Of a DNA stretch of 59,008 nt, positions 14,490 to 58,188 are shown piece by piece (within the stretch, counting starts at the first letter, position 1; each line of letters begins with the position of its first letter). The DNA comes from a bacterium (lineage in GTDB: Bacteria; SAR324; NAC60-12). The position numbers and the translations under genes were made by a program. The DNA lies in assembly GCA_965233585.1 (NCBI GenBank), contig CBDDTI010000352.1, forward strand, positions 1 through 59,008. The letters run 5' to 3'. The notes under the pieces are model-generated. The model saw only the letters and a list, made by a program, of their open reading frames with translations. It was not told the origin of the DNA and did no database searches.

Positions 14490-14559
14490 TGCAGGGTTGC
14501 AAATGGTGTCCATGAAAAAATGACAACTATATCAGTTAATTAATGCTCATTGTCCTATG

Positions 14560-14913
14560 CTAAAACACACACACCAACAAAAAAAAAATCATCCATTTGT
14601 TCAACCCAGGCACATGGCATTCTCTACATCCTGATTGCCAGGGAATTCTGCTGAGGAAGACTGTGTGGCCATTGCCACAGTCAACCTTAGGCTCCCTAAG
14701 GTATCTAGGATACTCCACAATGTTTTCTGAGTCCAAGTTGTTGAAGAGTGCTAAGCATGAGGGTTCCTGAGGTGGATCATTGGACTGAAGCTGGTAGCGC
14801 CCTTGGCCACCCCTCTGAGTCCACAAAACTCCATCTGGCACCTCAGCAGGCTTCTCTTCAAACATAGGATGAGGTTTGCCTGAGCCTCTCCCATGATAGT
14901 CAAAGAAAGACAT
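14560..14913 (-). CDS. Module 4 Zn-ribbon-like protein
   Basis: YPRYLREPKVDCGNGHTVFLSRIPWQSGCREC; TCAGCCATG start. Confidence 0.7.
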   Translation of the reverse strand: MSFFDYHGRGSGKPHPMFEEKPAEVPDGVLWTQRGGQGRYQLQSNDPPQEPSCLALFNNLDSENIVEYPRYLREPKVDCGNGHTVFLSRIPWQSGCRECHVPGLNKWMIFFLLVCVF

Positions 14914-15189
14914 GGCTGAGATGATATGGAGCAAAGGTTGATTAGTCCTTGCCCTTAGATTTGAGCCTTAAAAAGCTGAGGAATCACATAGACATGCACA
15001 AATATGAACATGCTACAACTTCATTGGTTAATTAATTAGCTAATTACTCAATTATAAGAAACTTAAACATGCATAAGCATGCTAATTAATTAATTAATTG
15101 ATTAATTAATTAATCAAAATTACCAAAAGTCTAAGATTATGTCCAAGCTGAGCACTAATCCCACACCACCAGAAACACCCTTCAGTCCT

Positions 15190-16002
15190 CTAGGGCTCTT
15201 CAGTCTTGGCCTTCTTGGACTTGGGCTCAGCATCTGAGGATGGATCTGATGCTGAATCATCACTGCTCATAGGCTGAGAGTCTAAGACCTGAGAATCATC
15301 AGCCAGCTCCTGGGACCCAAAGGGTGTATCTGATGGTGCTTCATCATCACTCCCCATAGGCTGAGAGTCTAAGACCTGAGAGTCCTTAGCCACCTCCATC
15401 ACCTCATCGTCAGGCTGTGCATTCAACTCCTTTTCCATATCCTGAAACTTGCTGAGGGTAGCATCAAATGTATCAGGTTTAGCAGGTTGGGCAGGCTGAG
15501 GAAGAGGGATACACTCTGAGCATCCTGAAGAGCTGTCTTGAGAATCCTAATCCATTGCCCCTGAGTGATCTTTGGGTAACCCTTGAAGTCTTTGAAGATC
15601 TGACTGAGTTCATTCCTGAAACTGAGCATCACCCAATCAGGCACAGCATCAGGATCCTCAAGCTGAACCAACTGCTGAGTGTAGTACTTCTGCAGCATGT
15701 CCACAAACTGTTCCTGAGAGCACCTGAGCTTCACCTTGATGTCAGCCATCTCAGCTGTCAGAGCCACCACCTTCATGGAGTTGCTTAAAGAACCACCCAA
15801 AAATAAAACTCATTGCTAATTAACCATTTCACTAATTAATTAATGGATTTCCCATTGGGAAACAAAAAAAACAAATCCAAGCCTTAGGGCTCAAAGAGAA
15901 TTTCTCCAGAGTCAGGATATTCCTGAGGTTGGAAAACCATTCCACAAGATGATAATTGTAGTCCTTCCTGAGCTTGTCCATCTCAGTGTTGAATTGCTCC
16001 AT
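15190..16002 (-). pseudogene. Module 4 probable two-exon helical protein with acidic SQ tail and KKAK end; 16-bp deletion near 15518
   Basis: Second exon intact in copy 51519..52145; tail DDSASDPSSDAEPKSKKAKT shared with the module 2 ORF. Confidence 0.55.
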
Positions 16003-16339
16003 GGCTGAGCTGATGGGATGCAAAGAAGCTGGCTAGAATGGGCTTGAGCCTTCACAAGCAAAGAAATAAATCCTCCCATGTGAGATGAAAATTGATTGAA
16101 ATCAAATGAAAAGCAATTCCTTGTTAATTAATAAATTAAGTTGAAATCAATTCAAAGTAAAGTGAAAATCAATTGAAAAACAATTTAATTAAACAAATTG
16201 AAAATCAATCGAAATTAATTTGAAATCATTTGAAATCAATTGAACATCAGTTGAAAATGAATTGAAATCAATTGAAATCAAAAACAAAGGCTTTCCAAAG
16301 GATGAGTTTCAGCCAAGCAAAAAAACATGAATGATCATA

Positions 16340-17955
16340 ATACACAATAGTATGGTTTGTTTGAGGGTACACTATTGTGTCCAGCTGCTTCCTGAGGTTA
16401 TGTTTTTTTTCAAGCATTTCCTTTCCCTTTTCATTTACTAAAGTTTGTTTCCTTTTACTTAGCTTCATCCTTCTTGGAATCAAAACCAAAGGCTTTCCAA
16501 AGGATCAGTTTTAGCCAAGCAAAAAAAACATGAATGATCCTGATACACAATAGTATGGTTTGTTTGAGGGTACACTATTGTGTCCAGCTGCTTCCTGAGG
16601 TGATTTTGTTTTTTAACATTCCCTTTACATTTTCCTTTGCTAAAGTTTGTTTCCTCTTACTTAGCTTCATTTTTCTTGGAATCAAAACCAAAGGCTTTCT
16701 AAAGGATTAGTTTCAGCCAAGCAAAAAAAACATGAATGATCATGATACACAATAGTATGGTTTGTTTGAGGGTACACTATTGTGTCCAGCTGCTTCCTGA
16801 GGTGATTTTGTTTTTTTAACATTCCCTTTGCATTTTCCTTTGCTAAAGCTTTTTTATTTTCTCAATTAGTTTCCTTTTATTTAGAATTCTCAGAAATGCA
16901 CAATTTCCCAAAATATTTAATGCCTTATTAAAACCCAATTAAAAAACATGACTCCAACAATTTTTCAAGGGGGTAGTCCATGAGCAACCCTGATACACAA
17001 TAGTGTGGTTTGTTTGGGGGTACACTATTGTGTCCAGCTGCTTCCTGAGGTGATTGTTTTTTTTCAACCATTTCCTTTTCTTTTTCCTTTGCTAAAGTTT
17101 GTTTCCTTTTACTTAGCTTCATTTTTCTTGGATTCAAAACCAAAGGCTTTCCAAAGGATTAGTTTCAGCCAAGCAAAAAAAACTTGAATGATCATGATAC
17201 ACAATAGTATGGTTTGTTTGAGGGTACACTATTGTGTCCAGCTGCTTCCTGAGGTGATTTTGTTTTTTTAACATTCCCTCTACATTTTCCTTTGCTAAAG
17301 CTTTTTTTATTTTCTCAATTAGTTTCTTTTATTTAGAATTCTCAGAAATGCACAATTTCCCAAAATATATGATGCCTTATTAAAACCCAATTAAAAAACA
17401 TGACTCAAACACTTTTTCAAGGGGGTAGTCCATGAGCAACCCTGATACACAATAGTGTGGTTTGTTTGGGGGTACACTATTGTGTCCAGCTGCTTCTTGA
17501 GGTTATTTTTTTTTTCCAACCATTTCCTTTTCCTTTTTCTTTGCTAAAGTTTGTTTCCTTTTACTTAGCTTCATTTTTCTTGGAATCAAAACCAAAGGCT
17601 TTCCAAAGGATTAGTTTCAGCCAAGCAAAAAAAACATGAATGATCATGATACACAATAGTATGGTTTGTTTGAGGGTACACTATTGTGTCCAGCTGCTTC
17701 CTGAGGTGATTTTGTTTTTTAACATTTCCTTTACATTTTCCTTTGCTAAAGCTTTTTTATTTTCTCAATTAGTTTCTTTTATTTAGAATTCTCAGAAATG
17801 CACAATTTCCCAAAACATATGATGCCTTATTAAAACCCAATTAAAAAACATGACTCAAACAATTTTTCAAGGTGGTAGTCCATGAGCAACCTTGATACAC
17901 AATAGTGTGGTTTGTTTGGGGGTACACTATTGTGTCCAGCTGCTTCCTGAGGTGA
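16340..17955. repeat. Right subterminal array of 8 hairpin repeats
   Basis: Same core with mostly alternating ~200/~250-bp periods. Confidence 0.9.
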
Positions 17956-17969
17956 TTGTTTTTTTCTTT

Positions 17970-18744
17970 TACTTGAAAGTAAATTGAAATCAATTGCAAG
18001 TAAATTGAAATCAATTGAAATTGAAATCAATTGAAAGTAAATTGAAAGCAATTGAAAGTAAATTGAAATCAGTTGAAAGTAAATTGAAATCAATTGAAAG
18101 TAAATTGAAATCAATTGAAAGTAAATTGAAATCAATTGAAAATAAATTGAAATCAATTGAAAGTAAATTGAAATCAATTTAAATTGAAATCAATCGAAAG
18201 TAAATTGAAATCACTTGAAAGTAAATTGAAATCAATTCGAAACAAATTCAAATCAATTGAAAGTAAATTGAAATCAATTCAAAATAAATTGAAATCAATT
18301 GAAAGTAAATTGAAATCAATTGAAAGTAATTTGAAATCAATTCAAAATAAATTCAAATCAATTGAAAGTAAATTGAAATCAATTGAAAGTAAATTGAAAT
18401 CAATTGAAAATAAATTGAAATCAATTGAAAGTAATTTGAAATCAATTCAAAATAAATTCAAATCAATTGAAAGTAAATTGAAATCAATTGAAAGTAAATT
18501 GAAATCAATTCAAAATAAATTCAAATCAATTGAAAGTAAATTGAAATCAATTCAAAGTAAATTGAAATCAATTGAAAATAAATTCAAATCAATTGAAAGT
18601 AAATTGAAATCAATTGAAAATAAATTCAAATCAATTGAAAGTAAATTGAAATCAATTGAAAATAAATTCAAATCAATTGAAAGTAAATTGAAATCAATTC
18701 AAAATAAATTCAAATCAATTGAAAGTAAATTGAAATCAATTTAA
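17970..18744. repeat. 21-bp tandem satellite (GAAAGTAAATTGAAATCAATT)n, roughly 35-37 copies
   Basis: Directly visible; explains the spurious KLKSIES and ISIYFQL ORFs. Confidence 0.95.
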
Positions 18745-18835
18745 ATCTATTTTTTTTTTGATTTTACACTATTCTGTACCCGGTACCTTGGTTTTTCCAC
18801 ACTATTCTGTAACCAAAATTTGTTTGGGGGGGGCC

Positions 18836-21810: not shown

Positions 21811-23745
21811 GGTACAAAATAGTGTGGTTTGTTTGGAGGGTACACTATTGTGTCCAGCTGCTTTCCTGAGGTCATGATTTTTTGTTTTTTTTCAATCATT
21901 TCCTTTACCTTTTCCTTTGCTAGCTAAAGTGTTTTCCTTTTAATTAATTCCTTTCTTAGTTTCTTTCATTTGAAATTCTCAGAAATGACCAGTTTCCCAA
22001 AATATATGATGCCTTATTAAAACCCAATAAAAAAACATCACTCAAACAATTTTTCAAGGGGGTAGTCCATGAGCAACCCTGGTACACAATAGTGTGGTTT
22101 GTTTGAGGGTACACTATTGTGTCCAGCTGCTTTCCTGAGGTCATGATTTTTTTGATTTTTTCAATCATTTCCTTTACCTTTTCCTTTGCTAGCTAAAGTG
22201 TTTTCCTTTTAATTAATTCCTTTCTTAGTTTCTTTCATTTGAAATTCTCAGAAATGACCAGTTTCCCAAAATATATGATGCCTTATTAAAACCCAATTAA
22301 AAAACATCACACAAACAATTTTTCAAGGGGGTAGTCCATGAGCAACCCTGATACACAATAGTGTGGTTTGTTTGGAGGGTACACGATTGTGTCCAGCTGC
22401 TTCCTGAGGTCATGATTTTTTTGATTTTTTCAATCATTTCCTTTACCTTTTCCTTTGCTAGCTAAAGTGTTTTCCTTTCAATTAATTTATTTCTTAGTTT
22501 CTTTCATTTGAAATTCTCAGAAATGACCAGTTTCCCAAAATATATGATGCCTTATTAAAACCAAATTAAAAAACATCACACAAACAATTTTTCAAGGGGG
22601 TAGTCCATGAGCAACCCTGATACAGAATAGTGTGGTTTGTTTGGAGGGTACACTATTGTGTCCAGCTGCTTCCTGAGGTCATGATTTTTTTGATTTTTTC
22701 AATCATTTCCTTTACCTTTTCCTTTGCTAGCTAAAGTGTTTTCCTTTTAATTAATTCCTTTCTTAGTTTCTTTCATTTGAAATTCTCAGAAATGACCAGT
22801 TTCCCAAAATATATGATGCCTTATTAAAACCCAATTAAAAAACATCACACAAACAATTTTTCAAGGGGGTAGTCCATGAGCAACCCTGATACACAATAGT
22901 GTGGTTTGTTTGAGGGTACACGATTGTGTCCAGCTGCTTCCTGAGGTCATGATTTTTGATTTTTTCAATCATTTCCTTTACCTTTCCCTTTGCTAGCTAA
23001 AGTGTTTTCCTTTTAAATAATTCCTTTCTTAGTTTCTTTCATTTGAAATTCTCAGAAATGACCAGTTTCCCAAAATATATGATGCCTTATTAAAACCCAA
23101 TAAAAAAAACATCACTCAAACAATTTTTCAAGGGGGTAGTCCATGAGCAACCCTGACACAGAATAGTCTGGTTTGTTTGGAGGGTACACTATTGTGTCCA
23201 GCTGCTTCCTGAGGTCATGATTTTTTTGATTTTTTCAATCATTTCCTTTACCTTTTCCTTTGCTAGCTAAAGTGTTTTCCTTTTAAATAATTCCTTTCTT
23301 AGCTTCTTTCATTTGAAATTCTCAGAAATGACCAGTTTCCCAAAATATATGATGCCTTATTAAAACCCAATAAAAAACATCACTCAAACAATTTTTCAAG
23401 GGGGTAGTCCATGAGCAAGCCTGATACACAATAGTGTGGTTTGTTTGAGGGTACACTATTGTGTCCAGCTGCTTTCCTGAGGTCATGATTTTTTTGATTT
23501 TTTCAATCATTTCCTTTACCTTTTCCTTTGCTAGCTAAAGTGTTTTCCTTTCAATTAATTTCTTAGTTTCTTTCATTTGAAATTCTCAGAAATGACCAGT
23601 TTCCCAAAATATATGATGCCTTATTAAAACCCAATTAAAACACATCACCCAAACAATTTTTCAAGGAGGTAGTCCATGAGCAACCCTGATACACAATAGT
23701 GTGGTTTGTTTGAGGGTACACTATTGTGTCCAGCTGCTTCCTGAA
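21811..23745. repeat. Left subterminal array of 8 hairpin repeats with a ~269-bp period
   Basis: Cores near 21811, 22081, 22350, 22619, 22888, 23155, 23423 and 23688. Confidence 0.92.
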
Positions 23746-23844: not shown

Positions 23845-26800
23845 TCAGGCAGGAGCAGCTGATGTTGCTGAGGTAGATGCAGCTGAGCTCGAGGAAATAG
23901 GTTCTAAAGATGAGCTTGCTGAGATAGCTAGGGTGGCTGACTTGAGCAGTTGCTCAAGATCCTCAGGCCCTGTGCTGAGAAAGGGCAACTTCTTGGCCTT
24001 GGCAGCCTCTGAGTGCAGGTGGTACCTGAGGCATTTGTAGGCATCACAGCTCAGGCAGCCTGATTGCCATCTGCACTTAGAACATTTTCCCAAGGCATGC
24101 TCCAGGAGCCTGACCTTGTGAACTGATTCCTCAGAGAGGTTTTTCCAGGTGAACCTCACTGAGTTCTTGTCCAGCTGCTGCTGAGCAGTAATGTAGGCAA
24201 CTGAGGTGATGTCCTTGAGCTTAGAAAGCTTTGCCTTAGCTTTTTCTTGTTGCTCAGCAGTCTTAGCCTTCTCAGATTGGAATTTCCCCCACCTGACCTT
24301 GGCAGCATCAGTGATAAGTTTTTGCTCAGCAATGACCTTGGTGCAAGCCATCTCCAACCTCTGCTTCCAGTTCTTCCACCCTGTCTCAGGCCAAACTGAG
24401 AGCCACTCTCCTCTGAGAAGCCTGATTTCTTCCTCCATGTAGTGAAGCACATAGCAGCCACAGGCATTGCTGCCCACAGGCTGCTTGGCAGAGTTGCTGA
24501 GTGGTGGAAGGATGAACTGAGGGTCAAGCAAGTTCCCCATGAGGATCTGCTGAGGATGAGATTCTTCATGCTCTTTGCTGAGGGAGTCATACCTCCTCCA
24601 AGTGATGGGTTGCCCAGTGCCTTCCCTCTGAGCTACCAGCAAAATCCAGTGAAACTGAGAATACACTGGAACCAGAAGAAGCCTGGTGCTCTCAGTCCAG
24701 CTGAGCTGCAAGCCTTGCTTCAAGCCATCCAGCTGCTCAGTATCCTCAGTCTCAAGAATCAGCTTGCTCAGGATGGGATCAATACAATGCACCCCAATTT
24801 CCTCTGGCTGAGGGACATTAGCCTTCTTGAAGCACCAGCTGAGAAGACACCAGCCAAACCAAAGGTGCTGATCCTCCATCTCAGGTATGTTGGCAGGGCA
24901 TGGCAACACTGTGTGAGTGGACCATTCCTCAGGGCCCATGCCAAGCTGATCATCAGGGTTGCAGCTCAGTTGGGACAGCCATAACTTGAGGTCATTCTTG
25001 CTGAGCTGGCTCCACTTAGGCCACTGAACTCTTGCAACAAAAGGCTTAGAGCTTTTGAGTTGCAGCCACTCAGGCTTAATCTGAAAGACTCCTGAGGTAG
25101 TGACCATGGTGTAGAAGCCTTTATCACCTTTGAAAGTGATCTTGCCTTCCTTGCCAAAGTGAAGCTTGCCTGCAGCATCTGAGGTGACAACAGCTTCCTG
25201 CATCAGAAGGGGGTCATCAGAATCTGGTGCTTCCTGAGGAGCCTCAGCAGGAGGAGGCAAAGGTGGTGGTGCCTTAGTTGCTTCCTCCTCACAAGTCTTC
25301 TTGGGCTCAGCATCTGAGATGGCTTGCTGCTGAGTGGCTTGCTCCTGAGTTTTCTTAGCAGCTTTCTTCAAGGATTTGAACTTAGCTGAAGGCTTGTTTT
25401 TGGCTGAGGGCTTGTTCTTCAAAGAATGTTTGAAGGCAAGGCTGAGCTTTTTCTTGCCTTGCTTCTGCTTCACCTCAGGCACCATCTCTGAGAAAGCTTC
25501 TTGTCTGCTTTGGGAACCAATTTTCTCAGATGCCTGTGCCACAATCTTCTGCCTGTGTTTTCTGAGCCATTTGTTTGCATGCCTCGCCCTGAGCCTCTTA
25601 GCCACATCTCTTTCCTTCTTTGCTTGGTACTCAGCTGTGCCCATTCTTCTGAATTGAGCTCTTCTGAGGGCAGGATGGATTCTCAGGGACAAGGAGTTCT
25701 GAAGCTCTAGCTCCAAGTCATCAGCAATGGCATCCTCTATCTCAGGCTTCTTCTCCTCTTCATCTAACTCTTTGTCATCCTCAGGATGCCGATAATCCCA
25801 TACTTGAAGATCTGAGATGTTCTTAGCTGTTTTGCTGAGATTCCAATCTGCCTTTATGGGCACCCCCTCATCATCTCTCCACTTGAGCCTGTCTCTGAGC
25901 CACTCAGGGTTGTACCTCTTGGTGCCAACCTCTAAGCCCATCTCCTTAGCCCAGCTCTGAGACAGCAGTTCTACAAGCCTCCCTGAGGCTGGATCAGGCC
26001 TGTAGACCAGGATCCCATTCCTGACTGCAGCTCTGAGAACCTAATTGTCATTGAGATTCTTCTCAGACATAAGCTCCTGAGCATGGACAACTGCAGTGAC
26101 AATCTCTAAGGGGCCAACTTTCCAAACTGAGTGCTCCTCCTTTCTCTGCTTCTGCCACTCAGCTCTGAGCTCAATGAGCCTCATTCTCACAATGGCTTTG
26201 AACTGCTTAGAAAAATCAGTGTCTGTGATTTGAAGCCTAGAGGTGCACTTCTCAGCCACCAGGCAACTGACCTGGTTTGCCAATGCCATGGCCTCAGTGG
26301 CTGTGTCACTGAACACTGAGCTGAAGCAGTCTCTCTGCCAGAGTGATGCTGGGTACTGCTGAGCTTGAGCTTCAATGCTCCAACTGAGGATGACTGAGTC
26401 CACATTGGCAGCTGGCTGCTGCATGAGCTCAATCTTTGACATGGGCTCAGGGTTGCTCGCCCTCAGCTTCCTATAGGGCAGTAAGACCCTACCAGCTGAT
26501 GTTCCCTGAGTTCTGGTGATGACAGTGTCACCTACTTTGAAGCTCTCAGTTTGGAGCCAAGTGCCTGAGTCTGAGATGTTGCTCAGTCTGGCCCATTGCC
26601 CTGGCACAACTAAGAGGCCTTTGCCCACTGAGCCAATAATCTCCTTATCCTCAGAAGCATAGACATTGTGCAGGAGCTGTCTTGCCTCATAGGTGATCCT
26701 GTATCTATCCTCCCCTGAGATTCCAATGAGAGTGGTGGATCCTGGCTGAGGCAAAGCTGGCTTGGCTGCTGGTGCTGAGGGCTGACTTGAGCTCGCTGCA

Positions 26801-28396
26801 CCTTGCTGGGTGCTGGCGTCTGCATCTTGCTGAGGGCTGGCTGGTACAATTTGCTCAGCATCTTCTGGAGATTGGCTTGGTGGAGCTGAGTCAAAGCTGG
26901 CCTTCTTCACCAGAGAATCTTTCTCAGAAAACTTGGAGGGAGAACCACTGTCTGCTGATGCAAAGCTGAGCTGCCTCACTACTGACCCCTTGGGAGATGA
27001 CTGAGATGACTCAAAGGTCAGCTGTTGTTTTGCCTTAGCCTTAGGTGCTGGTACCAATTGCTCAACAAGCATGTCAGGCCCACCAGCTGAGTGCATGACC
27101 TCCTTGATGGCTTCCCTAACTGAAGAAAATTCTTTGACATCATCAGATTTATGAAGCTCCTCCTGGGCAAAGACAGCTCTCCTCCCTGTAGCTTTGGCCC
27201 ACAAGGGCACCTGGTCTGAGAAGCCAATGACCAGTTGATGCCTTGCTGAGATGAACTGCACTGGGCCGCTGACCCTTTTGCTCTCAGCTAAGACCTGCTG
27301 AGATGCAAGTGTGCTCAGCCACAGGCTGTGGTCAAACTCCTGCCATGTCAGCTTAGTTCTGGTCTCAGCTTCAGTGGCTGAAATGTTGGTCACCAGCTCA
27401 GTGGCCATATACTTAGCATCAAGCCATGAAACAAGTCTGAAAGCAGTTATTTTCCTATATCCAGGATTTTCAAGCAACTTAGTCTTCCTCTCCTCTCTCT
27501 CTCTCTGTGCTATCTTTGAGCAACTCAGCTCTTTGCAAGGCAGTGATGTCCTTGTTTGATGCTTTGTTTCTGAGCTCATTTGCTGTGAGCTGCAGTCTGG
27601 CCATGTACTCAGCCATCAGATCCTGCTTAGAGATAGTGTTGCCACAAGCTCTTTCAAGACTGAGCCATTGCTTCATACTTGAGAGGATATCTGGGAAAGC
27701 AAGTTTTCTTCCACCTCCCTGAGCCCTCTTTCTCTTAGATTTCTCTTGTTTTCTGAGGTTCTTGAGCTTGCTCTGAGACACAAGTTGCTTGTATGACTCA
27801 TGGTTTGCCAGCATGTGGCTGAGTTGCTTTTTGGTGATGCCATACTTGCTGCTCTGAGCCTTCCAAAAATCCTCAAGCTTAGTGAACCTGGGCTTGTCTG
27901 CAAGCATCTCCTCACAGTACTTCACCTTTGTCTCAGCTGAGATTTCTGCTCTTTTGGTGGCTGAGCCTGGCTTCTTCCTGTTGGTACCTGATGAGCTGGC
28001 TTGTGGAGACTGCTGAGGTTCCCTCCTTACAAGCCTGGCTGTTTTCTTAGCTATCTCTATGAGTTCTGAATCTCTCTCAGCTTTTTGAGCCTTCAGCTCA
28101 GCATTTTCTCTCAGCAATTCATTCCTTTCCCTCATGGCATCCTGCTGAAATCTGCTGAGCCTTTGCCTTTTCTGAGGTACCAGTTCTTCTGACACTGGCT
28201 TCTCAGCACCTCTCTTCTGGCTTCCTGAGCCAAAAAACTTGCCAAGACCAGACTGCAACCTCCCTGAGCTGGGTGGTGAAGACTCAGGGCTGCCAGTAGA
28301 GCCCTTCTGAGGTGTAGATTCAGCTCCTCCACCTCTAGCTCTGAGCTGCTTCTTCACCTTAGTTGAATACAATGTTGAGGCAAATCCCCAAGACAT
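23845..28396 (-). pseudogene. pogo-family DD35D transposase fused to a Ulp1/SENP-like (C48) protease and a C-terminal Cys4 finger; disrupted by a (GA)n frameshift near 27495 and an in-frame TAG at 26041-26043
   Basis: HTH/CENP-B-like KRKRAQGGGRKLAFPDILSSMKQWLSLERACGNTISKQDL; DDE motifs IGFSDQVPLW, SLWQRDCF, CTSRLQITDTDFSKQFK (35 aa between D2 and D3); Ulp1 motifs LLLVPVYSQFHWILLV, YDSL, KQPVGSNACGCYVL; ORFs 26041..27579 and 23845..25941 share a frame with an open 33-codon bridge. Confidence 0.88.
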
Positions 28397-28439
28397 GTAT
28401 TAAAACCTAATTTCAAAACAGCTGAGAACTCAGTTTTTT

Positions 28440-29400
28440 CTAAGTGTTTTTGACTGAGTTCCCACATCTCCTGGCTTGGCCAAATGAAGAATCAAAAAAT
28501 CTTAGGTAATTAATTAATTAATATGGAAAGCATCAACCTTAGGCCATCATATCTATGACACATGCTCAAGTGCCATCAAGTTTCTTCTCTGAGGATGCCC
28601 AGCTGAGTGTTCACTTTGGAGACTGAGCCACTGAAGACATTCTTGAGCTGAGCTGATTTGGAAAGGAAGATCTTGATGATGTAGCCCAACAAGATCATGG
28701 CTGAGAACCAGCCCTTGGCATTGCAATCAACAATGAATTAATTAACTAATTAATTATATAATTATATAAGTGTACAATTGTACAGTTATATGCTTAGAGG
28801 AAGCTAGTGGAGAAACAAAAGTGTTTACTTACTTAAATCTTGCCTAAGATCCAGCTGAGCACTGTTGAAGAATTGTTCCAGAGCATTGAGCCTCTTGCTC
28901 AGATCCACTGAGTTACAGCCTGCAATGCAGGCTGCATGAGATGGAAAAAACATATTTCCTCAATTAATTAATTAGGTAAACAAAAGCCCATTCAATAGCC
29001 CAAGGTTTAAAACCAAAAAGCTGAGATGCAAGCTCAGATGCTGGCCATGCTGATCCCTGAGCTCATCACCAAGGCCAAGAAAGCAAAGGTTTTGAGCTGA
29101 GATGAAATAGCCATGCTGAGCCTTGGCTGACAAGATTTGAATTAATCAACTAAGCAACTGAGAACTGAAACAATGTAATTAACTAAGTAATTAAATATCC
29201 CACTTTTATATAGTAATTAATTAATTGACAACTTCTATTTCATAGGAAAAACTTGAGACAATAAAAAACAAAATTGGATACAAAAACCAAAACTTGATTT
29301 CATTCACAATCTCAGGAACTTCCAGTTGAAATAAGCTGATAGAGGAATAGTCGCTGCTGAGCTCTGGATGCTGCTGTGCACACATGCAAGCTCAGAACCA
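28440..29400 (-). other. Exon-like region upstream of the transposase, paralogous to 4000-4950; second copy near 57085-58045
   Basis: Shared blocks such as CCCACATCTCCTGGCT, GGAAAGCATCAACCTTAGGCCATCAT and GCTAGTGGAGAAACAAAAGTGTTTA. Confidence 0.7.
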
Positions 29401-29554
29401 AAACATCAAACTTTGCTGAAAGTGCTTTGCTGAGAAATAATTATTCAATTTCCCAAATGTATATAATTATATAATTATATAAAATTATATAATATCTTGC
29501 AAAAAAAAAAAAAAATCAAAACAACTTTTCAAGAGGTAGTCCATGAGCAACCCT

Positions 29555-30110
29555 GATACACAATAGTATGGTTTGTTTGGGGGTGCACTATTGTGTCCAG
29601 CTGCTTCCTGAGGTTATTTTTTTTCAACCATGTCCTTTACCTTATCCTTTAACTACTAAACTTTTTCTTTTACTTTTCTATTTTTCTTATAATTCTCAGA
29701 AATGACCAGTTTCCCAAAATATATGATGCCTTATTAAAACCCAATTAAAAAACATCACTCAAACAATTTTTCAAGGGGGTAGTCCATGAGCAACCCTGAT
29801 ACACAATAGTGTGGTTTGTTTGAGGGTACACTATTGTGTCCAGCTGCTTCCTGAGGTTATGTTTTTTTCAACCATTTCCTTTTCCTTTTCCTTTGCTAAA
29901 GTTTGTTTCTTTTATTTTCTCAATTAGTTTCTTTTATTTAGAATTCTCAGAAATGCCAAATTTCCCAAAATATATGATGCCTTATTAAAACCCAATTAAA
30001 AAATATCACTCAGACAATTTTTCAAGGGGGTAGTCCATCAGCAACCCTGATACACAATAGTGTGGTTTGTTTGAGGGTACACTATTGTGTCCAGCTGCTT
30101 CCTGAGTTGA
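29555..30110. repeat. Array of 3 hairpin repeats
   Basis: Same core. Confidence 0.9.
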
Positions 30111-30732
30111 TTTTTTGTTGCATTCCCTGTACCTTTTCCTTTGCTAAGATTTTTTTTTTGCTGTTTGAGTTTGAGTTTCTTTCATGTAAAATGCTCAGAA
30201 ATGCTCAATTTCTTAAAACATATGGTGCCTTATTTAATCCCAATTAAAAAACAGCATCCAACTCAGTGATTGCAGCCAGCTTCAATCTCCTTTTTCATCC
30301 AATGCCTCTAAGATCTGATGCTGTTGAGGAGCTGAGACATGATGAGAATTCAAAGTAGCTGATGATTGCTTAGTCTGCGCCAAGCTTTTAAAAAGTAGAA
30401 GCCAACTAAGCTCCATCAGAATTGCCCTGAGTGTTCCTCTGGTTGCTGCCAGCTGATGGCTGCCCAAGAACTTCCTTCTTATCCTCAGGTCCTGCCAGGG
30501 TGAAGACAGCTAAGAACAAGATAACCTAATTAATTATTTGGGTTGCAGAAGCAGCAATGAAGAATCCCACCACATCAGCTGCATTTTTGTACTTGCAAGC
30601 TGCTTCTCAGACTTAGCTGATGCCACAAATTTAATGCCAGACTTAGCTGATTGATTATTTAGCTGCTTAGCTGAGGTGATGCTTCAAAAAAACAACTGAG
30701 GCTTTTGCTCAGGCTGCAAACTCACTAATTAA

Positions 30733-31777
30733 TTAGTATGTTTCCAAATCAGGCTCAGTTGTGCCTTCAGTTGTTGCATTACTCCTCTGAGGAAGCTGCC
30801 AAGGAGCATTCTGATGATCATTGGCAGCCTCGGGCTCCTGTCTCCTCTGAGTTGCATCACTCCCCTGAGCAGCCTGAGCAACCTGCCAAGGAGCAGTCTT
30901 AAAAGAAGGTTTGGGTGGAGGCTCCTGTCTCTTCTGAGTTGCATCACTCCCCTGAGCAGCCTGAGCAACCTGCCAAGGAGCAGTCTTAAAAGAAGGTTTG
31001 GGTGGAGGCTCCTGGCTCTTCTGAGTAGCATCACTCCCCTGAGCAGCCTGAGCAACCTGCCAAGGAGCAGTCTTCTTAGAAGGTTTGGGTGGAGGCATCT
31101 GATGATCATTGGCAGCCTCAGGCCCCTGGGCAGCCTGAGAAGGCATGGGGGCAAACACATAAGCCAAAGAAGAAGGAGGAGCCTTGAAGACAGGAGCCTT
31201 AGACTGAGACTGCTTCATGTTCTGAAAGCTTTTCTTCTCCTCCATCTCAGTCAAAGCAGTGCTGATCTTCTCCTTGGCCTGAGTGAGTTCCAACTGCATC
31301 TGAGCTAAGAGGAGTTGCTCATCTTGCATCTTCTTAGCATCCTCCAAGATCTTGAAAAGAGTAAACTCCTGAGCATCCATGCCATACTTCAGAGCCTCAA
31401 GCTTCTGAGTGATCTCATTGTGGATGTTCTCAAGGGAGCCTATTTCACTGAGATCTTCAGCCCCTTGCACCAGCTTGATGAAGTGATAGTATGCTCAGGG
31501 TCAATCACAGCATATTGGGATTTGTAGTACCCCTCAGATTTGCTGGCCTGAGCTTTTGGCCTAGCCTTGGCTGAAGGAGCTGACTTGAACAACTGATACA
31601 ACTGAGAAGGCCCAGCAGATTTAGGAGGCTCAGCAGGCTCCAGTTTGTGCATGAACTGAGCACAATAGAAAGGCTCTGTGACAAACACCTGCCAGGGGAG
31701 TGGGCAAAGGTTGAGAATCATCTGGTAATACTGAGCAATGGTCTCCTTAGACCACCCATTGATATCCTGCAGGGTTG
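30733..31777 (-). pseudogene. Module 1 coiled-coil protein copy 2 (same frameshift as 366..1410)
   Basis: Identical split ORFs. Confidence 0.7.
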
Positions 31778-31880
31778 TAAGGGATGTGAAAAACCTATCA
31801 AACATACATTACAGTTTAGTGATGAATTAATTAATTATATGATTAGTTAATTGACTAGTAATCAAATCATGCCCACATGC

Positions 31881-32174
31881 TCAGAAACACAAAGAACAAA
31901 TGCATTCACACATGTTCAAACCCATGTCCTTGCAGAAGGTGCAGCCATTCTGAAATGGGATCCTGCTGAGCATCACCTTAGACCTGCAGTTAGGACACTG
32001 AACATAAGGCTCTTCATCATACCTTGGGTAATGTATGATCTCCTTAGGATCTGAGCCAGGACCAAATAGATCCTCCACTGAGGGAAAACTTGATGAAGGC
32101 CTCAGTCTGATCACAATGTGAGGGCCTGCCATAGCCCAGCTTAAGCCATGTGGGACTGAGTGAGGTTTGTCCAT
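31881..32174 (-). CDS. Module 1 Zn-ribbon-like protein copy 2
   Basis: Identical to 1514..1807. Confidence 0.65.
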   Translation of the reverse strand: MDKPHSVPHGLSWAMAGPHIVIRLRPSSSFPSVEDLFGPGSDPKEIIHYPRYDEEPYVQCPNCRSKVMLSRIPFQNGCTFCKDMGLNMCECICSLCF

Positions 32175-32253
32175 GGCTGAGTTGCAGCTGAGTTGGGATT
32201 CAAATATGCTCACTATGGGCTTGAGTTCATTAAGCAGCTGAGCTATCACACAA

Positions 32254-32484
32254 TCATGCATTCCTGAACAAAGCTGAGCACAAGTCCAAGACCATGAGCA
32301 AGCTTGGAACCAACCCCACACCACCAGAACCAACCCTGAGTCCTCTCTCAGCTTTGCCACCCTTCTGAGATGCATCCTTAGGGTTGAGCTTCAGGTAATC
32401 CACAACTTCTTTTGCTGAGAGACCATAATCTTCAATTGCCTGAAGAAAGACTTGTCTCTGCTCCTGAGAAAACTTTGGTGCCAT
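32254..32484 (-). CDS. Module 1 small helical protein copy 2
   Basis: Identical to 1887..2117. Confidence 0.5.
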   Translation of the reverse strand: MAPKFSQEQRQVFLQAIEDYGLSAKEVVDYLKLNPKDASQKGGKAERGLRVGSGGVGLVPSLLMVLDLCSALFRNA

Positions 32485-33069
32485 GGCTGAGGAAGTGAAC
32501 TGGCTAGCCTGAGAGCTTCTTAAACTTGGGATTGAGCCCTCACAAGCTGAGAAATGGACCCTTGCTGAGGTGAACACAAGAAAAACCAATTGAAAATAAT
32601 TAATTAACTTGAAGTCAACTGAAAATCCTTTGAAATCAATTGGAAGTAAATTGATTTAAATTGAACATCAATTGGAATCAATTGGAAATCAGTTGAAAGT
32701 AATTGATTAATTAATTTAAAATCAATTGAAAATGCATTGAAATTCAACTTACTTCAATTGAAAATTCATTGAAAGTAAATAGATATCAACTGAACATAAT
32801 TAATTAATTAATTACTTATGTTTGTTTTGGTGGTCCACTATTGTGTTCAGCTACTTATTGAGGTCAATTGTCTTTAGAAACATTCCCTTTACCTTTTTCC
32901 TGTGCTAAAGTTTTTTCTTAGAATTATGTGTCAACCCAGACCATGTCACAGTTCCTTATCACTTTTTTTTGCTTACACTGAATGTCAAAGCTTTATTTGC
33001 TGAGATTTGCGCAGTTTGGCTCAGAACATAGTATATAGCAAATAATGTTTTTCTAAGAGTTTGCTGAGA

Positions 33070-35325
33070 TCTAAACTAAGAATAATGCTCATGAGCCAGA
33101 TTGAAAATGAATCTCAGCTGAGAGGAAGAGACAGGTAGCCTTGCTTAGAAGGCACCTGAGGAAATTGAAAATTAATTACTGCTGAGAATTTTTTCTCAGC
33201 ACTTGCAGATCCAAAGAACCACTCAAGTTCTTTCTCATGAGCATCTACCTGAGCTGCAGGCTACATCAAATTTTAACAATGTCTTCAGTTGAAAAAATAA
33301 TCATGTTCCAAAAACATTGATGGCCCAAAAGTAAAAATACATTTTTCAATGAGCAACCTCAGTCTGAGTGTTCCAAGGTGGAAGTGCATCAGGAGGAGAA
33401 ATGTCACTGAGGTCAATGGAGTCCAATACTGAGAATTTCTCAGCCTGAGAAGGAAATAATAAACACAACATCACATGAACTAGTTAATCTAAAGACTATG
33501 TTGAAGTTGTTGCTTACCCCAATGCTCAAGTTAAAACAAACTAATTCAAGCTGAGCAATCTTGGTTTTCAGGCCATTTTGCCTGGTCAGAGCAGCTTGGC
33601 AATGCTGCTTAGCCATACTCCATCCTGAGGTGTGAGTAAGATTATGCTCTAAGTCAAACTCCTTGCGCATAAAGACTGATTCAAGCTCTGGGCGCATTGT
33701 GTTCTGCACCAGAAGCACCTCATGGCTGAGCTCTTGCTCAGATGCCTCAGTCTTGTAGATGGCCTGAGATTGTTTGGCATCACAGCATGGTAAAAGATAT
33801 TGCTGATCAGTTAAACTTAAGAAAGAACTAATGAAAAGTAAAATTGCAAATAGAAAAAATACCAACACAAAAAAAATGTCATTGATTAATTATCCTGAGT
33901 TGCTCTGAGAAAACGCTGATATTGCACCCCCTCCTGGATGCTGAGGATAGCTGTGCTGAGCAACAAATCCCATTCCATCTCTAAGTCCTCAGTTGCTGAA
34001 GCATTCTTGTTTCATTAATTACTAAGCACACAGATTTGATCTTAAACAAATCTATTAATTGATTAATTAATTAATATAATTGATTAATTAGTTAATTCAT
34101 TAATTAATTGCATTGAAAAAAACATAAAACTGACAGTGGCTTTAACCAAGACACCATGTTGGTATACTGAGAGACTCCTTTACTTCCACTCAGAAAGGAC
34201 CACTTCTGAGTGTTTATGAACTCCAAATAGAGCTGAGATCCTCCAGCCTGGGGGCTGAAGTCATTGAAGTGCTGCTTGAGGTGTCTCAGGACATCCCATG
34301 GCCTCCCCTGAGAAAGGTCCACCCTGAGTTCCATTGATTGCAGCTTGGAGTTGCCATACTCAGATGAGGTCAAGTGTTCTTGACTGAGCTCCCACATCTC
34401 CTGGCTGGGTCAAATGAACCAACTAAAAAGGAATATGTTTTTTTGAGATAATTCATTAATTAATATGGAAAGCATCAACCTTAGGCCATCATCTTTCTGA
34501 CATATGCTCAAGTGCCACCAAGTTTCCTCCCTCAGGTTGCCTATCTGAGTGTCCAGTTTCTCAACTGAGTTACTGAACAGCTTCAGATCAGAGGATATCT
34601 CAAGCAAAGTCTTGAGGATGATGCTCAGGAGGATGATAGCTGAGCATATTCCCTTGGCATTGCAACCAAGAACTTATCAAGAATGTGTCTAAAAATGATA
34701 GGAACCCAGTTATTTGCTTGGAGAAAGCTAGTGGAGAAACAAAAGTGTTTATTTACTTAAATCTTGCCCAAGATCCAGCTGAGAACTGGTCAAGAGTGGT
34801 TCCAACCCACTCAGCCTCTTGCTCAGATCAACTGAGTTGCAGCCTGCAATGCAGGCTGCATGAGATGGAAAAACCATATTTCCTCAATTAATTAATGCGG
34901 TTAACAAAAACCCATTCAATAGCCCAAGGTTTAAAACCAAAAAGCTGAGATGCAAGCTCAGATGCTGGCAATGCTTATCCCTGAGCTCATCACCAAGGCC
35001 AAGAAAGCAAAGGTTTTGAGCTGAGTTGAAATAGCCATGCTGAGCCTTGGCTGACAAGATTAGAATTTAGCAACTGAAAACTGAAACAAGGTAATTAATT
35101 AAGTATTTAAATATACCACTTTTATACAGTAATTAATTGACAACCTCTATTTCATAGGAAAAAACTTGATACAATAAAAAAAATGCAACAAAAAACAAAA
35201 CTTAAATTTCATTGACAATCTCAGGAACACAGTTGACAGGAGCTGAAGGAAGCTGAGGCTGCTCTGGGCACTGCTGAGCTTTGGATGCTGCTGTGCACAC
35301 ATGCAAGCTCTGAGGCAAAACATCA
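33070..35325 (-). CDS. Probable multi-exon unknown gene copy 2
   Basis: Near-identical to 2700-4950. Confidence 0.4.
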
Positions 35326-35476
35326 GGTTTTGTTTAATTGTAATTACTTTCTTAGTTTCTTTCATTTGAAATTCCCAGAAATGCCCAATTTCCCAAACTA
35401 TATAATGCCTTATTAAAACCCAATTTAAATACATCTCTCAAACAATTTTTCAAGGTGGTAGTCCATGAGCAACCCT

Positions 35477-36058
35477 GATACACAATAGTGTGGTTTGTTT
35501 GAGGGTACACTATTGTGTCCAGCTGCTTCCTGAGGTCATGATTTTTAGATTTTTTCAATCAGTTCCTTTACCTTTTCCTTTGCTAGCTAAAGTTTTTTCC
35601 TTTTAATTAATTCCTTTCTTAGTTTCTTTCATTTGAAATTCTCAGAAATGACCAGTTTCCCAAAATATATGATGCCTTATTAAAACCCAATTAAAAAAAC
35701 ATCACTCAAACAATTTTTCAAGGGGGTAGTCCATGAGCAACCCTGATACACAATAGTGTGGTTTGTTTGGAAGGTGCACTATTGTGTCCAGCTGCTTCCT
35801 GAGGGTATGTTTTTTTTCAACCATTTCCTTTTCCTGTTCCTTTGCTAAAGTTTGTTTCTTTTATTTTCTCAATTAGTTTCTTTTATTTAGAATTCTCAGA
35901 AATGCCAAATTTCCCAAAATATATGATGCCTTATTAAAACCCAATTAAAAAATATCACTCAGACAATTTTTCAAGGGGGTAGTCCATCAGCAACCCTGAT
36001 ACACAATAGTGTGGTTTGTTTGAGGGTACACTATTGTGTCCAGCTGCTTCCTGAGTTG
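35477..36058. repeat. Hybrid array of 3 hairpin repeats at the duplication junction
   Basis: First unit matches the unit at 5099; the last two match 29798 and 30049. Confidence 0.88.
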
Positions 36059-36688
36059 ATTTTTTGTTGCATTCCCTGTACCTTTTCCTTTGCTAAGATT
36101 TTTTTTTTGCTGTTTGAGTTTGAGTTTCTTTCATGTAAAATGCTCAGAAATGCTCAATTTCTTAAAACATATGGTGCCTCATTTAATCCCAATTAAAAAA
36201 CAGCATCCAACTCAGTGATTGCAGCCAGCTTCAATCTCCTTTTCATCCAATGCCTCTAAGATCTGATGCTGTTGAGGAGCTGAGACATGATGAGAATTCA
36301 AAGTAGCTGATGATTGCTTAGTCTGTGCCAAGCTTTTAAAAAGTAAAGCCAACTAAGCTCCATCAGAATTGCCCTGAGTGTTCCTCTGGTTGCTGCCAGC
36401 TGATGGCTGCCCAAGAACTTCCTTCTTATCCTCAGGTCCTGCCAGTCCTGCCAGGGTGAAGACAGCTAAGAACAAGATAACCTAATTAATTATTTGGGTT
36501 GCAGAAGCAGCAATGAAGAATCCCACCACATCAGCTGCATTTTTGTACTTGCAAGCTGCTTCTCAGACTTAGCTGATGCCACAAATTTAATGCCAGACTT
36601 AGCTGATTGATTAATTAGCTGCTTAGCTGAGGTGATGCTTCAAAAAAACCACTGAGGCTTTTGCTCAGGCTGCAAACTCACTAATTAA

Positions 36689-37737: not shown

Positions 37738-37840
37738 TAAGGGATGTGAAAAACCTATCAAACATACATTACAGTTTAGTGATGAATTAATTAATTATAT
37801 GATTAGTTAATTGACTAGTAATCAAATCATGCCCACATGC

Positions 37841-55154: not shown

Positions 55155-57039
55155 GTTCTGGTGATGACAGTGTCACCTACTTTGAAGCTCTCAGTTTGGA
55201 GCCAAGTGCCTGAGTCTGAGATGTTGCTCAGTCTGGCCCATTGCCCTGGCACAACTAAGAGGCCTTTGCCCACTGAGCCAATAATCTCCTTATCCTCAGA
55301 AGCATAGACATTGTGCAGGAGCTGTCTTGCCTCATAGGTGATCCTGTATCTATCCTCCCCTGAGATTCCAATGAGAGTGGTGGATCCTGGCTGAGGCAAA
55401 GCTGGCTTGGCTGCTGGTGCTGAGGGCTGACTTGAGCTCGCTGCACCTTGCTGGGTGCTGGCTTCTGCATCTTGCTGAGGGCTGGCTGGTACAATTTGCT
55501 CAGCATCTTCTGGAGATTGGCTTGGTGGAGCTGAGTCAAAGCTGGCCTTCTTCACCAGAGAATCTTTCTCAGAAAACTTGGAGGGAGAACCACTGTCTGC
55601 TGATGCAAAGCTGAGCTGCCTCACTACTGACCCCTTGGGAGATGACTGAGATGACTCAAAGGTCAGCTGTTGTTTTGCCTTAGCCTTAGGTGCTGGTACC
55701 AATTGCTCAACAAGCATGTCAGGCCCACCAGCTGAGTGCATGACCTCCTTGATGGCTTCCCTAACTGAAGAAAATTCTTTGACATCATCAGATTTATGAA
55801 GCTCCTCCTGGGCAAAGACAGCTCTCCTCCCTGTAGCTTTGGCCCACAAGGGCACCTGGTCTGAGAAGCCAATGACCAGTTGATGCCTTGCTGAGATGAA
55901 CTGCACTGGGCCGCTGACCCTTTTGCTCTCAGCTAAGACCTGCTGAGATGCAAGTGTGCTCAGCCACAGGCTGTGGTCAAACTCCTGCCATGTCAGCTTA
56001 GTTCTGGTCTCAGCTTCAGTGGCTGAAATGTTGGTCACCAGCTCAGTGGCCATATACTTAGCATCAAGCCATGAAACAAGTCTGAAAGCAGTTATTTTCC
56101 TATATCCAAGATTTTCAAGCAACTTAGTCTTCCTCTCCTCTCTCTCTCTGTGCTATCTTTGAGCAACTCAGCTCTTTGCAAGGCAGTGATGTCCTTGTTT
56201 GATGCTTTGTTTCTGAGCTCATTTGCTGTGAGCTGCAGTCTGGCCATGTACTCAGCCATCAGATCCTGCTTAGAGATAGTGTTGCCACAAGCTCTTTCAA
56301 GACTGAGCCATTGCTTCATACTTGAGAGGATATCTGGGAAAGCAAGTTTTCTTCCACCTCCCTGAGCCCTCTTTCTCTTAGATTTCTCTTGTTTTCTGAG
56401 GTTCTTGAGCTTGCTCTGAGACACAAGTTGCTTGTATGACTCATGGTTTGCCAGCATGTGGCTGAATTGCTTTTTGGTGATGCCATACTTGCTGCTCTGA
56501 GCCTTCCAAAAATCCTCAAGCTTAGTGAACCTGGGCTTGTCTGCAAGCATCTCCTCACAGTACTTCACCTTTGTCTCAGCTGAGATTTCTGCTCTTTTGG
56601 TGGCTGAGCCTGGCTTCTTCCTGTTGGTACCTGATGAGCTGGCTTGTGGAGACTGCTGAGGTTCCCTCCTTACAAGCCTGGCTGTTTTCTTAGCTATCTC
56701 TATGAGTTCTGAATCTCTCTCAGCTTTTTGAGCCTTCAGCTCAGCATTTTCTCTCAGCAATTCATTCCTTTCCCTCATGGCATCCTGCTGAAATCTGCTG
56801 AGCCTTTGCCTTTTCTGAGGTACCAGTTCTTCTGACACTGGCTTCTCAGCACCTCTCTTCTGGCTTCCTGAGCCAAAAAACTTGCCAAGACCAGACTGCA
56901 ACCTCCCTGAGCTGGGTGGTGAAGACTCAGGGCTGCCAGTAGAGCCCTTCTGAGGTGTAGATTCAGCTCCTCCACCTCTAGCTCCGAGCTGCTTCTTCAC
57001 CTTAGTTGAATACAATGTTGAGGCAAATCCCCAAGACAT
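55155..57039 (-). pseudogene. 3'-truncated second copy of the transposase gene (HTH and first catalytic D only)
   Basis: Near-identical to 26510-28396; breaks at 55155 into a hairpin-repeat loop; (GA)n frameshift near 56140. Confidence 0.88.
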
Positions 57040-58188
57040 GTATTAAAACCTAATTTCAAAACAGCTGAGAACTCAGTTTTTTCTAAGTGTTTTTGACTGA
57101 GTTCCCACATCTCCTGGCTTGGCCAAATGAAGAATCAAAAAATCTTAGGTAATTAATTAATTAATATGGAAAGCATCAACCTTAGGCCATCATATCTATG
57201 ACACATGCTCAAGTGCCATCAAGTTTCTTCTCTGAGGATGCCCAGCTGAGTGTTCACTTTGGAGACTGAGCCACTGAAGACATTCTTGAGCTGAGCTGAT
57301 TTGGAAAGGAAGATCTTGATGATGTAGCCCAACAAGATCATGGCTGAGAACCAGCCCTTGGCATTGCAATCAACAATGAATTAATTAACTAATTAATTAT
57401 ATAATTATATAAGTGTACAATTGTACAGTTATATGCTTAGAGGAAGCTAGTGGAGAAACAAAAGTGTTTACTTACTTAAATCTTGCCTAAGATCCAGCTG
57501 AGCACTGTTGAAGAATTGTTCCAGAGCATTGAGCCTCTTGCTCAGATCCACTGAGTTACAGCCTGCAATGCAGGCTGCATGAGATGGAAAAAACATATTT
57601 CCTCAATTAATTAATTAGGTAAACAAAAGCCCATTCAATAGCCCAAGGTTTAAAACCAAAAAGCTGAGATGCAAGCTCAGATGCTGGCCATGCTGATCCC
57701 TGAGCTCATCACCAAGGCCAAGAAAGCAAAGGTTTTGAGCTGAGATGAAATAGCCATGCTGAGCCTTGGCTGACAAGATTTGAATTAATCAACTAAGCAA
57801 CTGAGAACTGAAACAATGTAATTAACTAAGTAATTAAATATCCCACTTTTATATAGTAATTAATTAATTGACAACTTCTATTTCATAGGAAAAACTTGAG
57901 ACAATAAAAAACAAAATTGGATACAAAAACCAAAACTTGATTTCATTCACAATCTCAGGAACTTCCAGTTGAAATAAGCTGATAGAGGAATAGTCGCTGC
58001 TGAGCTCTGGATGCTGCTGTGCACACATGCAAGCTCAGAACCAAAACATCAAACTTTGCTGAAAGTGCTTTGCTGAGAAATAATTATTCAATTTCCCAAA
58101 TGTATATAATTATATAATTATATAAAATTATATAATATCTTGCAAAAAAACAAAACAACTTTTCAAGAGGTAGTCCATGAGCAACCCT

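Follow-up and report, generated by a model that had tools for sequence, protein, structure and literature searches.

A gene on the minus strand of a 59,008-nucleotide stretch of DNA (contig CBDDTI010000352.1; the whole stretch is henceforth called the window) runs from an ATG at 28394-28396 to a TGA at 23845-23847, coordinates that were verified by script, and is broken into three open pieces. We consider it probable that this gene is a dead copy from a family of proteins in which a pogo-like transposase is fused to a cysteine protease of the CE clan. Sequence comparison places the locus, as a dead copy, in a large and mostly unannotated eukaryotic family whose only named members come from Symbiodiniaceae, dinoflagellates that live as coral symbionts. 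An intact member would be a single polypeptide of ~1,400-1,490 residues with six parts in a fixed order: a short N-terminal leader with a ubiquitin-tail-like R-x-R-G-G-G at its end, a pogo/Tc5-like helix-turn-helix DNA-binding region, an RNase H-fold core whose D, D(35)D triad is broken by a long disordered insertion, a conserved middle domain with a basic linker, a cysteine isopeptidase of the CE clan (Ulp1/SENP/XopD-type) that retains H-D-Q-C, and a long helix followed by a Cys4 zinc knuckle. The N-terminal half would act as a cut-and-paste transposase of the IS630-Tc1-mariner/pogo type, while the C-terminal protease would strip off ubiquitin-like modifiers, possibly from the transposase, from chromatin or from repair factors where excision takes place; a further possible substrate is its own N-terminal leader, cut after Gly-Gly.

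A single reading frame interrupted by two lesions

An earlier reading of this DNA made from the sequence alone (henceforth the sequence-only reading) had joined the three open reading frame (ORF) pieces into one frame of ~1,500 codons, and all of its coordinates proved correct when the codons were checked by script. The pieces lie on the minus strand at 27479-28399, 26041-27615 and 23845-26040. The second and third share a frame and are split only by a single TAG, and the first and second are in different frames where they overlap, at a (GA)7 run. Intact homologs that cross both breaks measure 1,387-1,464 residues. Four of the seven homologs that were fetched, with lengths of 1,430-1,464 residues, cross both joins and reach the cysteine motif near the C-terminus; they carry Trp at the position of the window's TAG and are unbroken over the GA-run join. 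The proposal of one long frame is borne out by these homologs, and the stop at 26041 is not a consistent feature of the intact proteins. Because the homologs are continuous through both sites, we regard the window copy as a pseudogene with two lesions, a frameshift in the (GA)7 run and a TAG in place of a Trp codon, and this comparison indicates that it is a dead or decaying copy, unable to make the full protein; either lesion could in principle be an assembly error. When pieces 2 and 3 were read through with X at the TAG, 36 proteins matched at E<=1e-3 among 8,000 candidates (best 1,943 bits), a match to its family that by these scores is far beyond chance.

Three other readings of the locus were rejected. 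Use of TAG as a sense codon was ruled out by the Trp in the homologs and because nothing else points to a variant code; an intron in the GA run is at odds with the unbroken homolog ORFs there; and the idea of an upstream ubiquitin exon fails on a stop two codons before the ATG and on the absence of any ORF of at least 60 codons upstream. One could also take the TAG and the frameshift in the window at face value and suppose two or three separate genes, for transposase and protease, with the stop at 26041 as the natural end of the first. We give this next to no chance, since all four of the fetched homologs that reach the cysteine motif are continuous with Trp at the TAG position, and the domains keep one order throughout the 24 protease-bearing proteins among the 36 long ones. 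On these comparisons we hold separate genes to be already refuted for the family.

The C-terminal half models as a CE-clan protease

The order H-D-Q-C in the third piece had been taken as the signature of a Ulp1/SENP-type protease. In the window, CAC TGG (H-W) occupies 24646-24651, YDSL lies at 24580-24591, and Q1045-x6-C1052 runs from 24481-24483 to 24460-24462. Structure prediction supports the assignment: an AlphaFold2 model of 23848-25248 (mean predicted local distance difference test [pLDDT] 85.9, predicted template modelling score [pTM] 0.71) shows a CE-clan fold, and a Foldseek search of the Protein Data Bank (PDB) with this model returned XopD at E 1.6e-6 (target TM 0.69) among 48 matches at E<=1e-3, others being NopD, SENP5, NEDP1, SENP1/2/7 and Ulp1. 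A family profile built from 12 sequences and run against the PDB matched RickCE (5ham) at E 3e-4 and XopD weakly. The HW, DSL and aCG (catalytic Cys) stretches are in register with RickCE in the profile alignment, and the catalytic residues align to the catalytic positions of both RickCE and XopD. H989 and D1010 are kept in all 12 aligned proteins, Q1045 in 11 and C1052 in 10, the two proteins without C1052 being truncated or diverged at that point. In the model, Cys1052 stands at the start of a helix, like in papain-like enzymes. Thus, fold, profile and conservation confirm that the H-D-Q-C order marks a real Ulp1/SENP/XopD-like protease, and its assignment to the CE clan is secure. The predicted role of the domain is most likely that of an isopeptidase acting on a ubiquitin-like modifier. 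Known CE-clan effectors and SENPs (XopD, NopD, RickCE, SENP1/2/5/7, NEDP1, Ulp1) have the same fold and the same H-D-Q-C order, but identity to them is only 12-20%, and the domain is here embedded in a transposase-like protein.

Sequence models pick up this domain in few relatives. We scanned 121 family proteins with Pfam, 12 of them at E<=1, 40 at E<=0.01 and 69 at E<=0.1. Peptidase_C48 matched two of the 12 (best E 0.001), exceeded the Pfam cut-off in two of the 40, which are distant relatives (P0057, 24.3 bits; P0140, 22.2 bits), with one more of the 40 below it, and was found under the cut-off in one of the 69. Piece 3 as a single sequence had 0 matches in the PDB.

The N-terminal half has the predicted layout of a probable DDD transposase core

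For the other half, the sequence-only reading had proposed a DD35D pogo transposase. The Asp triad with its 35-residue spacing stood up to comparison: all 12 aligned proteins have D134 and D429, and 11 have D465, and the 35 residues between D429 and D465 fall within the range of 29-59 reported for pogo DDxD. In a set of 40 sequences reaching down to 24% identity, D429, D465 and D467 are almost invariant. A model of the core (mean pLDDT 61.7) places one catalytic Asp in strand 1, the next directly behind strand 4 and the third right before the helix that follows strand 5, and this predicted order of strands and helices, together with the placement of the Asp residues, fits the layout of an RNase H-fold DDE enzyme. 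The Foldseek matches listed for the model, all of them retroviral integrase catalytic cores, weakly favour such a fold (best E 0.024).

Language-model comparison (Atlas) gave further leads, which come without E-values. For residues 150-800 of the relative P0002, the nearest named clusters all carry DDE_1 (0.94; 191/256 features). For the N-terminal piece of the window they carry HTH_Tnp_Tc5, CENP-B or BrkDBD (0.91), at 160-165 features, under the tool's mark of 170. From the conserved residues and the modelled layout, we consider an RNase H-fold DDD nuclease likely. Motif, topology and language-model evidence tips the balance towards a pogo affinity of this half; membership of the pogo superfamily is not established.

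A large eukaryotic family with a constant domain order

Counted as representative clusters, the family numbers 1,399 at E<=1e-3, 797 at E<=1e-10 and 275 at E<=1e-30, and its 90%-identity clusters have up to 179 members; the closest relatives are 71-95% identical. Local hidden Markov models (HMMs) for five segments (N-terminal region, core, middle domain, protease and zinc tail) always found them in this order. The protease was detected in 24 of the 36 family proteins of at least 1,000 residues, and of the 12 long proteins in which it was not detected, seven end at or near the last domain found. As judged from these matches, one fused protein is the family norm, perhaps not a universal one. Only 6 of the 36 relatives are named, coming from Durusdinium trenchii, Symbiodinium natans, Symbiodinium sp. 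CCMP2592 and two EukProt 'Skav' models, and the only labels given to relatives are 'unnamed protein product' and the UniRef entry 'Ubiquitin-like protease family profile domain'. A literature search on Ulp1 with transposases, on dinoflagellates, and on Peptidase_C48 with DDE_1 found no description of the fusion family. Our scan of bacterial and archaeal genome contigs gave one match, a 1,541-bp contig of a metagenome-assembled genome (MAG) with no flanks (L001). It encodes a 57%-identical piece of the eukaryotic family (query residues 293-716) and is probably eukaryotic contamination of a bacterial MAG bin.

The remaining parts of the protein are listed with the others in Table 1. No Pfam model matches the transposase half, the middle domain or the zinc tail, a gap in coverage that the family brings to light. 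The sequence-only reading had also ended the protein in a Cys4 finger. The motif is present where it was placed, and it is kept in all eight of the 12 aligned proteins that extend that far; it is not the end of the protein, which continues for 66 residues beyond it.

Table 1. Features of the gene and of its second copy in the window
Feature	Positions	Strand	Basis or remark
Whole gene, ATG to TGA	23845..28396	-	Pseudogene copy; ~1,517 aa when read through
R-A-R-G-G-G motif, residues 19-24, candidate cleavage site	28325..28342	-	Resembles ubiquitin tail; family enrichment
Putative bipartite helix-turn-helix DNA-binding region, including GGGRKLAFPDILSSMKQWLSLERACGNTIS	27590..27982	-	Conserved block, Atlas neighbours; window piece without Pfam match
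(GA)7 run, frame loss between pieces 1 and 2	27493..27506	-	Homologs continuous here; second copy differs by one GA unit
Likely RNase H-like DD35D catalytic core	26146..27243	-	Conserved Asp, model layout, Foldseek, Atlas neighbours
Predicted catalytic triad D134; D429; D465	27214-27216; 26329-26331; 26221-26223	-	GAC codons
Low-complexity, predicted-disordered insertion, ~128 aa, S/P/A/Q-rich	26707..27090	-	Between core strands 1 and 2; pLDDT <50, model residues 139-266
In-frame TAG; Trp in homologs	26041..26043	-	Codon check and comparison with fetched homologs
Conserved middle domain (VLRAAVRNGIL...WDY)	25636..26040	-	Alignments A1, A8; local HMM in 69/183 proteins; no Pfam match
Basic linker, 24% K+R	25216..25635	-	Composition
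CE-clan (Ulp1/SENP/XopD-like) cysteine protease domain	24376..24918	-	AlphaFold2 model, Foldseek, profile match, conserved residues
Protease catalytic residues H989; D1010; Q1045; C1052	24649-24651; 24586-24588; 24481-24483; 24460-24462	-	
Single helix of ~75 residues, possibly coiled coil	24163..24390	-	Model helix 287-362
C-x2-C-x6-C-x2-C motif CSKCRWQSGCLSC, putative zinc knuckle	24046..24084	-	Alignment; local HMM in 24/183 proteins; no Pfam match
Second copy, 3' truncated, 5' part only	55155..57042	-	Without D429, D465 and all downstream; inside segmental duplication

A ubiquitin-tail-like motif at the N-terminus

The most interesting aspect of the family, and a new one, is the motif at the end of the leader. 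The C-terminus of ubiquitin reads L-R-L-R-G-G, and CE-clan enzymes cleave after Gly-Gly. In the window the motif stands in the context K-K-Q-L-R-A-R-G-G-G-A-E, and relatives have I-R-L-R-G-G-G, L-R-L-R-G-G-G, M-R-L-R-G-G-G, T-L-R-G-G-G and similar versions. We examined the 70 residues upstream of a QYGLxKFF anchor in the 20 family proteins in which this anchor is preceded by 22 or more residues: the pattern [RK]x0-2GGG occurs in 15 of the 20, against 23 of 1,206 windows taken as background from other parts of these proteins. All three Gly are invariant in an alignment of 22 sequences that were mostly picked for having the motif. R-x-R-G-G-G is therefore a candidate, on sequence likeness, for a cis-cleavage site or a pseudosubstrate of the protein's own protease, and it supplies a concrete candidate site for the idea of self-processing. 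The sequence-only reading had put this idea forward beside another, that the protease could counter SUMO-dependent silencing.

Evidence against the fusion-transposon reading, and its rivals

A number of results weigh against the reading of the gene as a dead pogo-like transposase with a protease. The sequence-only reading had staked itself on a match to Peptidase_C48 or DDE_1, and hmmscan of the window copy returned neither, Peptidase_C48 having no match at E<=1; it is the fold evidence that saves the protease here. DDE_1 was found in 0 of the 121 family proteins and, at E<=1, in no piece of the window gene, and HTH_Tnp_Tc5 gave a single, sub-threshold match among the 121 (P0076, with 16.6 bits where 22.2 are required), which falls at the stretch equivalent to the window's helix-turn-helix region; the claimed membership of these two Pfam families is not demonstrated. 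Across the three main window pieces (E<=1) and four sub-pieces (E<=10), Pfam gave nothing relevant. When the core model, whose mean pLDDT is just 61.7, was compared with the PDB by Foldseek, nothing appeared at E<=1e-3; the matches listed (ranks 1-50) are all retroviral integrase catalytic cores (best E 0.024), with no Tc1/mariner structure among them, and a comparison with viral structures likewise had no match at E<=1e-3. Among PDB sequences no transposase turned up with either of two family profiles, one of which, a core profile of 40 sequences, had chance-level matches only (ankyrin, CAF1A). The relative P0017 has Ala at the D465 position, the Atlas scores carry the limits given above, and in P0075, P0077, P0098, P0131 and P0134 a stretch of ~150 or more residues follows the core with no protease found by the local HMM. 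Marks of transposition are missing as well: at the window copy, which is degraded and was the only one examined, no terminal inverted repeats pair the ORF flanks, and there is no TA target-site duplication or empty-site signature. The gene has the orientation of all its neighbours and lies amid the same intergenic repeats; mobility is therefore not demonstrated.

The integrase cores among the Foldseek matches raise the question of whether the nuclease half is integrase-like and the locus an ordinary Ginger1 member with Ulp1. The 35-residue spacing is also that of integrase D,D35E. HIV integrase is abundant in the PDB, which inflates its part of such weak matches, and several features speak for a different core: the third residue is Asp, set in T-x-x-L-Q-x-T-D, which resembles the pogo motif T-S-x-x-Q-P-L-D, what precedes the core looks like a helix-turn-helix and not an H2C2 finger, the Atlas neighbours carry DDE_1 and not rve, and Pfam returned no rve or other transposase family in any of the 121 proteins. 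Ginger1 (PMC2836005) does share the plan of one transposase ORF in which a Ulp1-type protease stands C-terminal to an RNase H-fold DDE core, but its own core is of the Gypsy integrase type and comes with YPYY, an H2C2 finger, DDE and GPY/F. Of these marks (rve, H2C2 finger, GPY/F), no integrase was found by Pfam in the 121 proteins and the motifs were not seen in our alignments. We consider a Ginger1-type element very unlikely.

A host function is the other possibility that has to be weighed. The gene could belong to a domesticated, multi-copy host family encoding a chromatin-bound deubiquitinase or deSUMOylase, duplicated like the other tandem arrays of the genome. The lack of terminal inverted repeats at the window copy would fit such a family, as would the strand, the intergenic satellite and the upstream module that the gene has in common with its neighbours. 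The second copy in the window points the same way: 26510-30376 and 55155-59008 are 99.5% identical, and the copy stops at 55155, where the junction reads into a satellite repeat; since it lies within this segmental duplication, it arose by duplication and not by transposition. Moreover, all domains and catalytic residues are kept in relatives down to 43-45% identity, implying selection on the whole protein. Set against this, all three catalytic Asp residues are retained, as an active transposase requires, the family comprises hundreds of diverged clusters with many fragments, some of its 90%-identity clusters being as large as stated above, and the window copy is decaying, for which a selfish repeat is the better fit. 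Family size, decay and the many fragments point to such a repeat, and we think a host gene family unlikely. We therefore keep a dead copy of a pogo-like transposase and CE-clan protease fusion as the best explanation.

Duplications, satellites and neighbouring genes

The window is built of large direct segmental duplications: 1-17657 corresponds to 36316-53976, 1-5481 to 30368-35858, and 26510-30376 to 55155-59008, and 28442-35858 is similar to 34372-41817. These duplications are 96-99.5% identical and give most window genes two or three copies. Intergenic satellites occupy 5098-6156, 11874-13076, 16272-17965, 21813-23744 and 29519-30253, plus duplicates, in units of ~250, 269 and 452 bp with a common core that includes a hairpin (ACACAATAGT.. 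/ ..ACACTATTGTGT); this core may be terminator-like or prone to recombination. An array of 7.2 units starts ~100 bp past the stop codon of the gene, a further one is found upstream of it, and the second gene copy is cut off exactly at such a repeat. Upstream of the gene, a module of ~950 bp (28442-29408) recurs at 4002-4947, and in duplicates, with ~82% identity, and is thus common to the gene and to a neighbouring ORF not related to it. Within the module are a short ORF resembling a signal peptide (MAISSQLKTFAFLALVMSS...) and TTAATTAATTAA blocks with stops in every frame.

Among the neighbours are three paralogous two-ORF modules on the minus strand (6733-8336, 10041-11504 and 13757-14967, plus duplicates), which have no Pfam match. 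One of their ORFs contains GWPxWVIQxYYxxILSMxPLPWA, and the other ends in YPRYLREP...C..GH..LSRIPWQSGCRECHVPG; the homologs of one module ORF are all unnamed protein records. Their WQSGCxxC stretch resembles the zinc motif of the gene itself over 12 residues (pairwise E 0.002), possibly a small zinc module common to both, to judge by this short alignment. A 253-residue minus-strand ORF includes an 87-bp tandem repeat of 3-3.5 copies (466-772, and also 30833-31139 and 36789-37052), and its protein therefore has an internal 29-residue repeat. At 17973-18745 there is a 21-bp tandem repeat of 37 copies (TTGAAAGTAAATTGAAATCAA), whose translation produces spurious coiled-coil Pfam matches; shorter arrays related to it are found at 2215-2432, 16086-16281 and elsewhere.

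Dinoflagellate genomes typically carry their genes in unidirectional arrays. In the window, 53 of the 63 ORFs of at least 110 codons lie on the minus strand, and those on the plus strand overlap minus-strand ORFs or tandem repeats. G+C content is ~0.45-0.50 in the coding blocks and 0.32-0.38 in the spacers. A search of the window for the dinoflagellate spliced-leader relic motif gave 0 matches, and Rfam and tRNA scans of the window found nothing.

Comparison with known elements and significance

How does the family compare with known transposons? Mutator-like elements with ULP1 domains were reportedly described by Hoen in 2006 and by van Leeuwen in 2007. The present family resembles these elements in having a transposon-borne CE-clan protease and differs from them in its transposase superfamily: none of the Mutator-type or Zisupton/KDZ transposase families, which are assumed to be present in our copy of Pfam, was returned for the 121 proteins or the window pieces.

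The likeness to pogo elements such as Passer and Fot lies in the putative helix-turn-helix N-terminal to a likely RNase H-like core, in the D, D(35)D triad, in the T-x-x-L-Q-x-T-D stretch around the third Asp, and in the nearest language-model neighbours, with DDE_1 and HTH_Tnp_Tc5. According to two surveys, pogo elements combine HTH_Tnp_Tc5/CENP-B_N with DDE_1 at a spacing of DD29-59D (PMC7386202, PMC7325037), and DD35D is the spacing of the Passer and Fot families (PMC7386202); pogo-derived proteins have ~470-670 residues, POGZ with its added zinc fingers being longer (PMC7386202). In contrast to these, the present family lacks a Pfam DDE_1 match and an above-threshold HTH_Tnp_Tc5, and the window copy shows neither terminal inverted repeats nor a TA duplication. 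Because of the large disordered insertion, ~295 residues separate the first and second Asp, and the protein is roughly three times longer, with a C-terminal protease, helix and zinc knuckle. The word 'protease' is absent from the main text of the two surveys (PMC7386202, PMC7325037).

A fusion of Ulp1 to a pogo transposase, which the sequence-only reading had called unusual, is less so than it supposed. According to one report, Ginger1 carries a C-terminal Ulp1 on a DDE transposase, Mutator elements have Ulp1 domains, as had been said of Mutator-like elements before, and Ulp1/OTU-type proteases recur in Mutator, Ginger1 and other transposons, for which a part in transposition has been suggested (PMC2836005). 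On Ulp1 in Zisupton elements, which the sequence-only reading had named as well, our literature search returned nothing. Unlike Ginger1, the family described here has Asp as its third residue, a helix-turn-helix-like DNA-binding region and no integrase family match. What is new, therefore, is probably the fusion of a Ulp1-type protease with what appears to be another type of transposase.

For the biology of these elements, the family is an independent case of a transposon-borne Ulp1 on a seemingly different type of transposase, and it is very large and almost wholly unannotated. The practical value of this window is modest, its copy being a pseudogene within a segmental duplication. Taken to its furthest point, the N-terminal motif suggests dinoflagellate pogo-like transposons that would carry both their own deubiquitinase-type protease and its built-in substrate, a tail mimic cut in cis, so that the transposase would be matured or regulated by ubiquitin-style processing, a picture that we regard as clearly unlikely at present. 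With the candidate cleavage site inside the same polypeptide, the role of Ulp1 is testable with one construct. If true, cis cleavage of the tail mimic would for the first time give the Ulp1 domains that recur in unrelated transposon superfamilies a concrete role open to testing.

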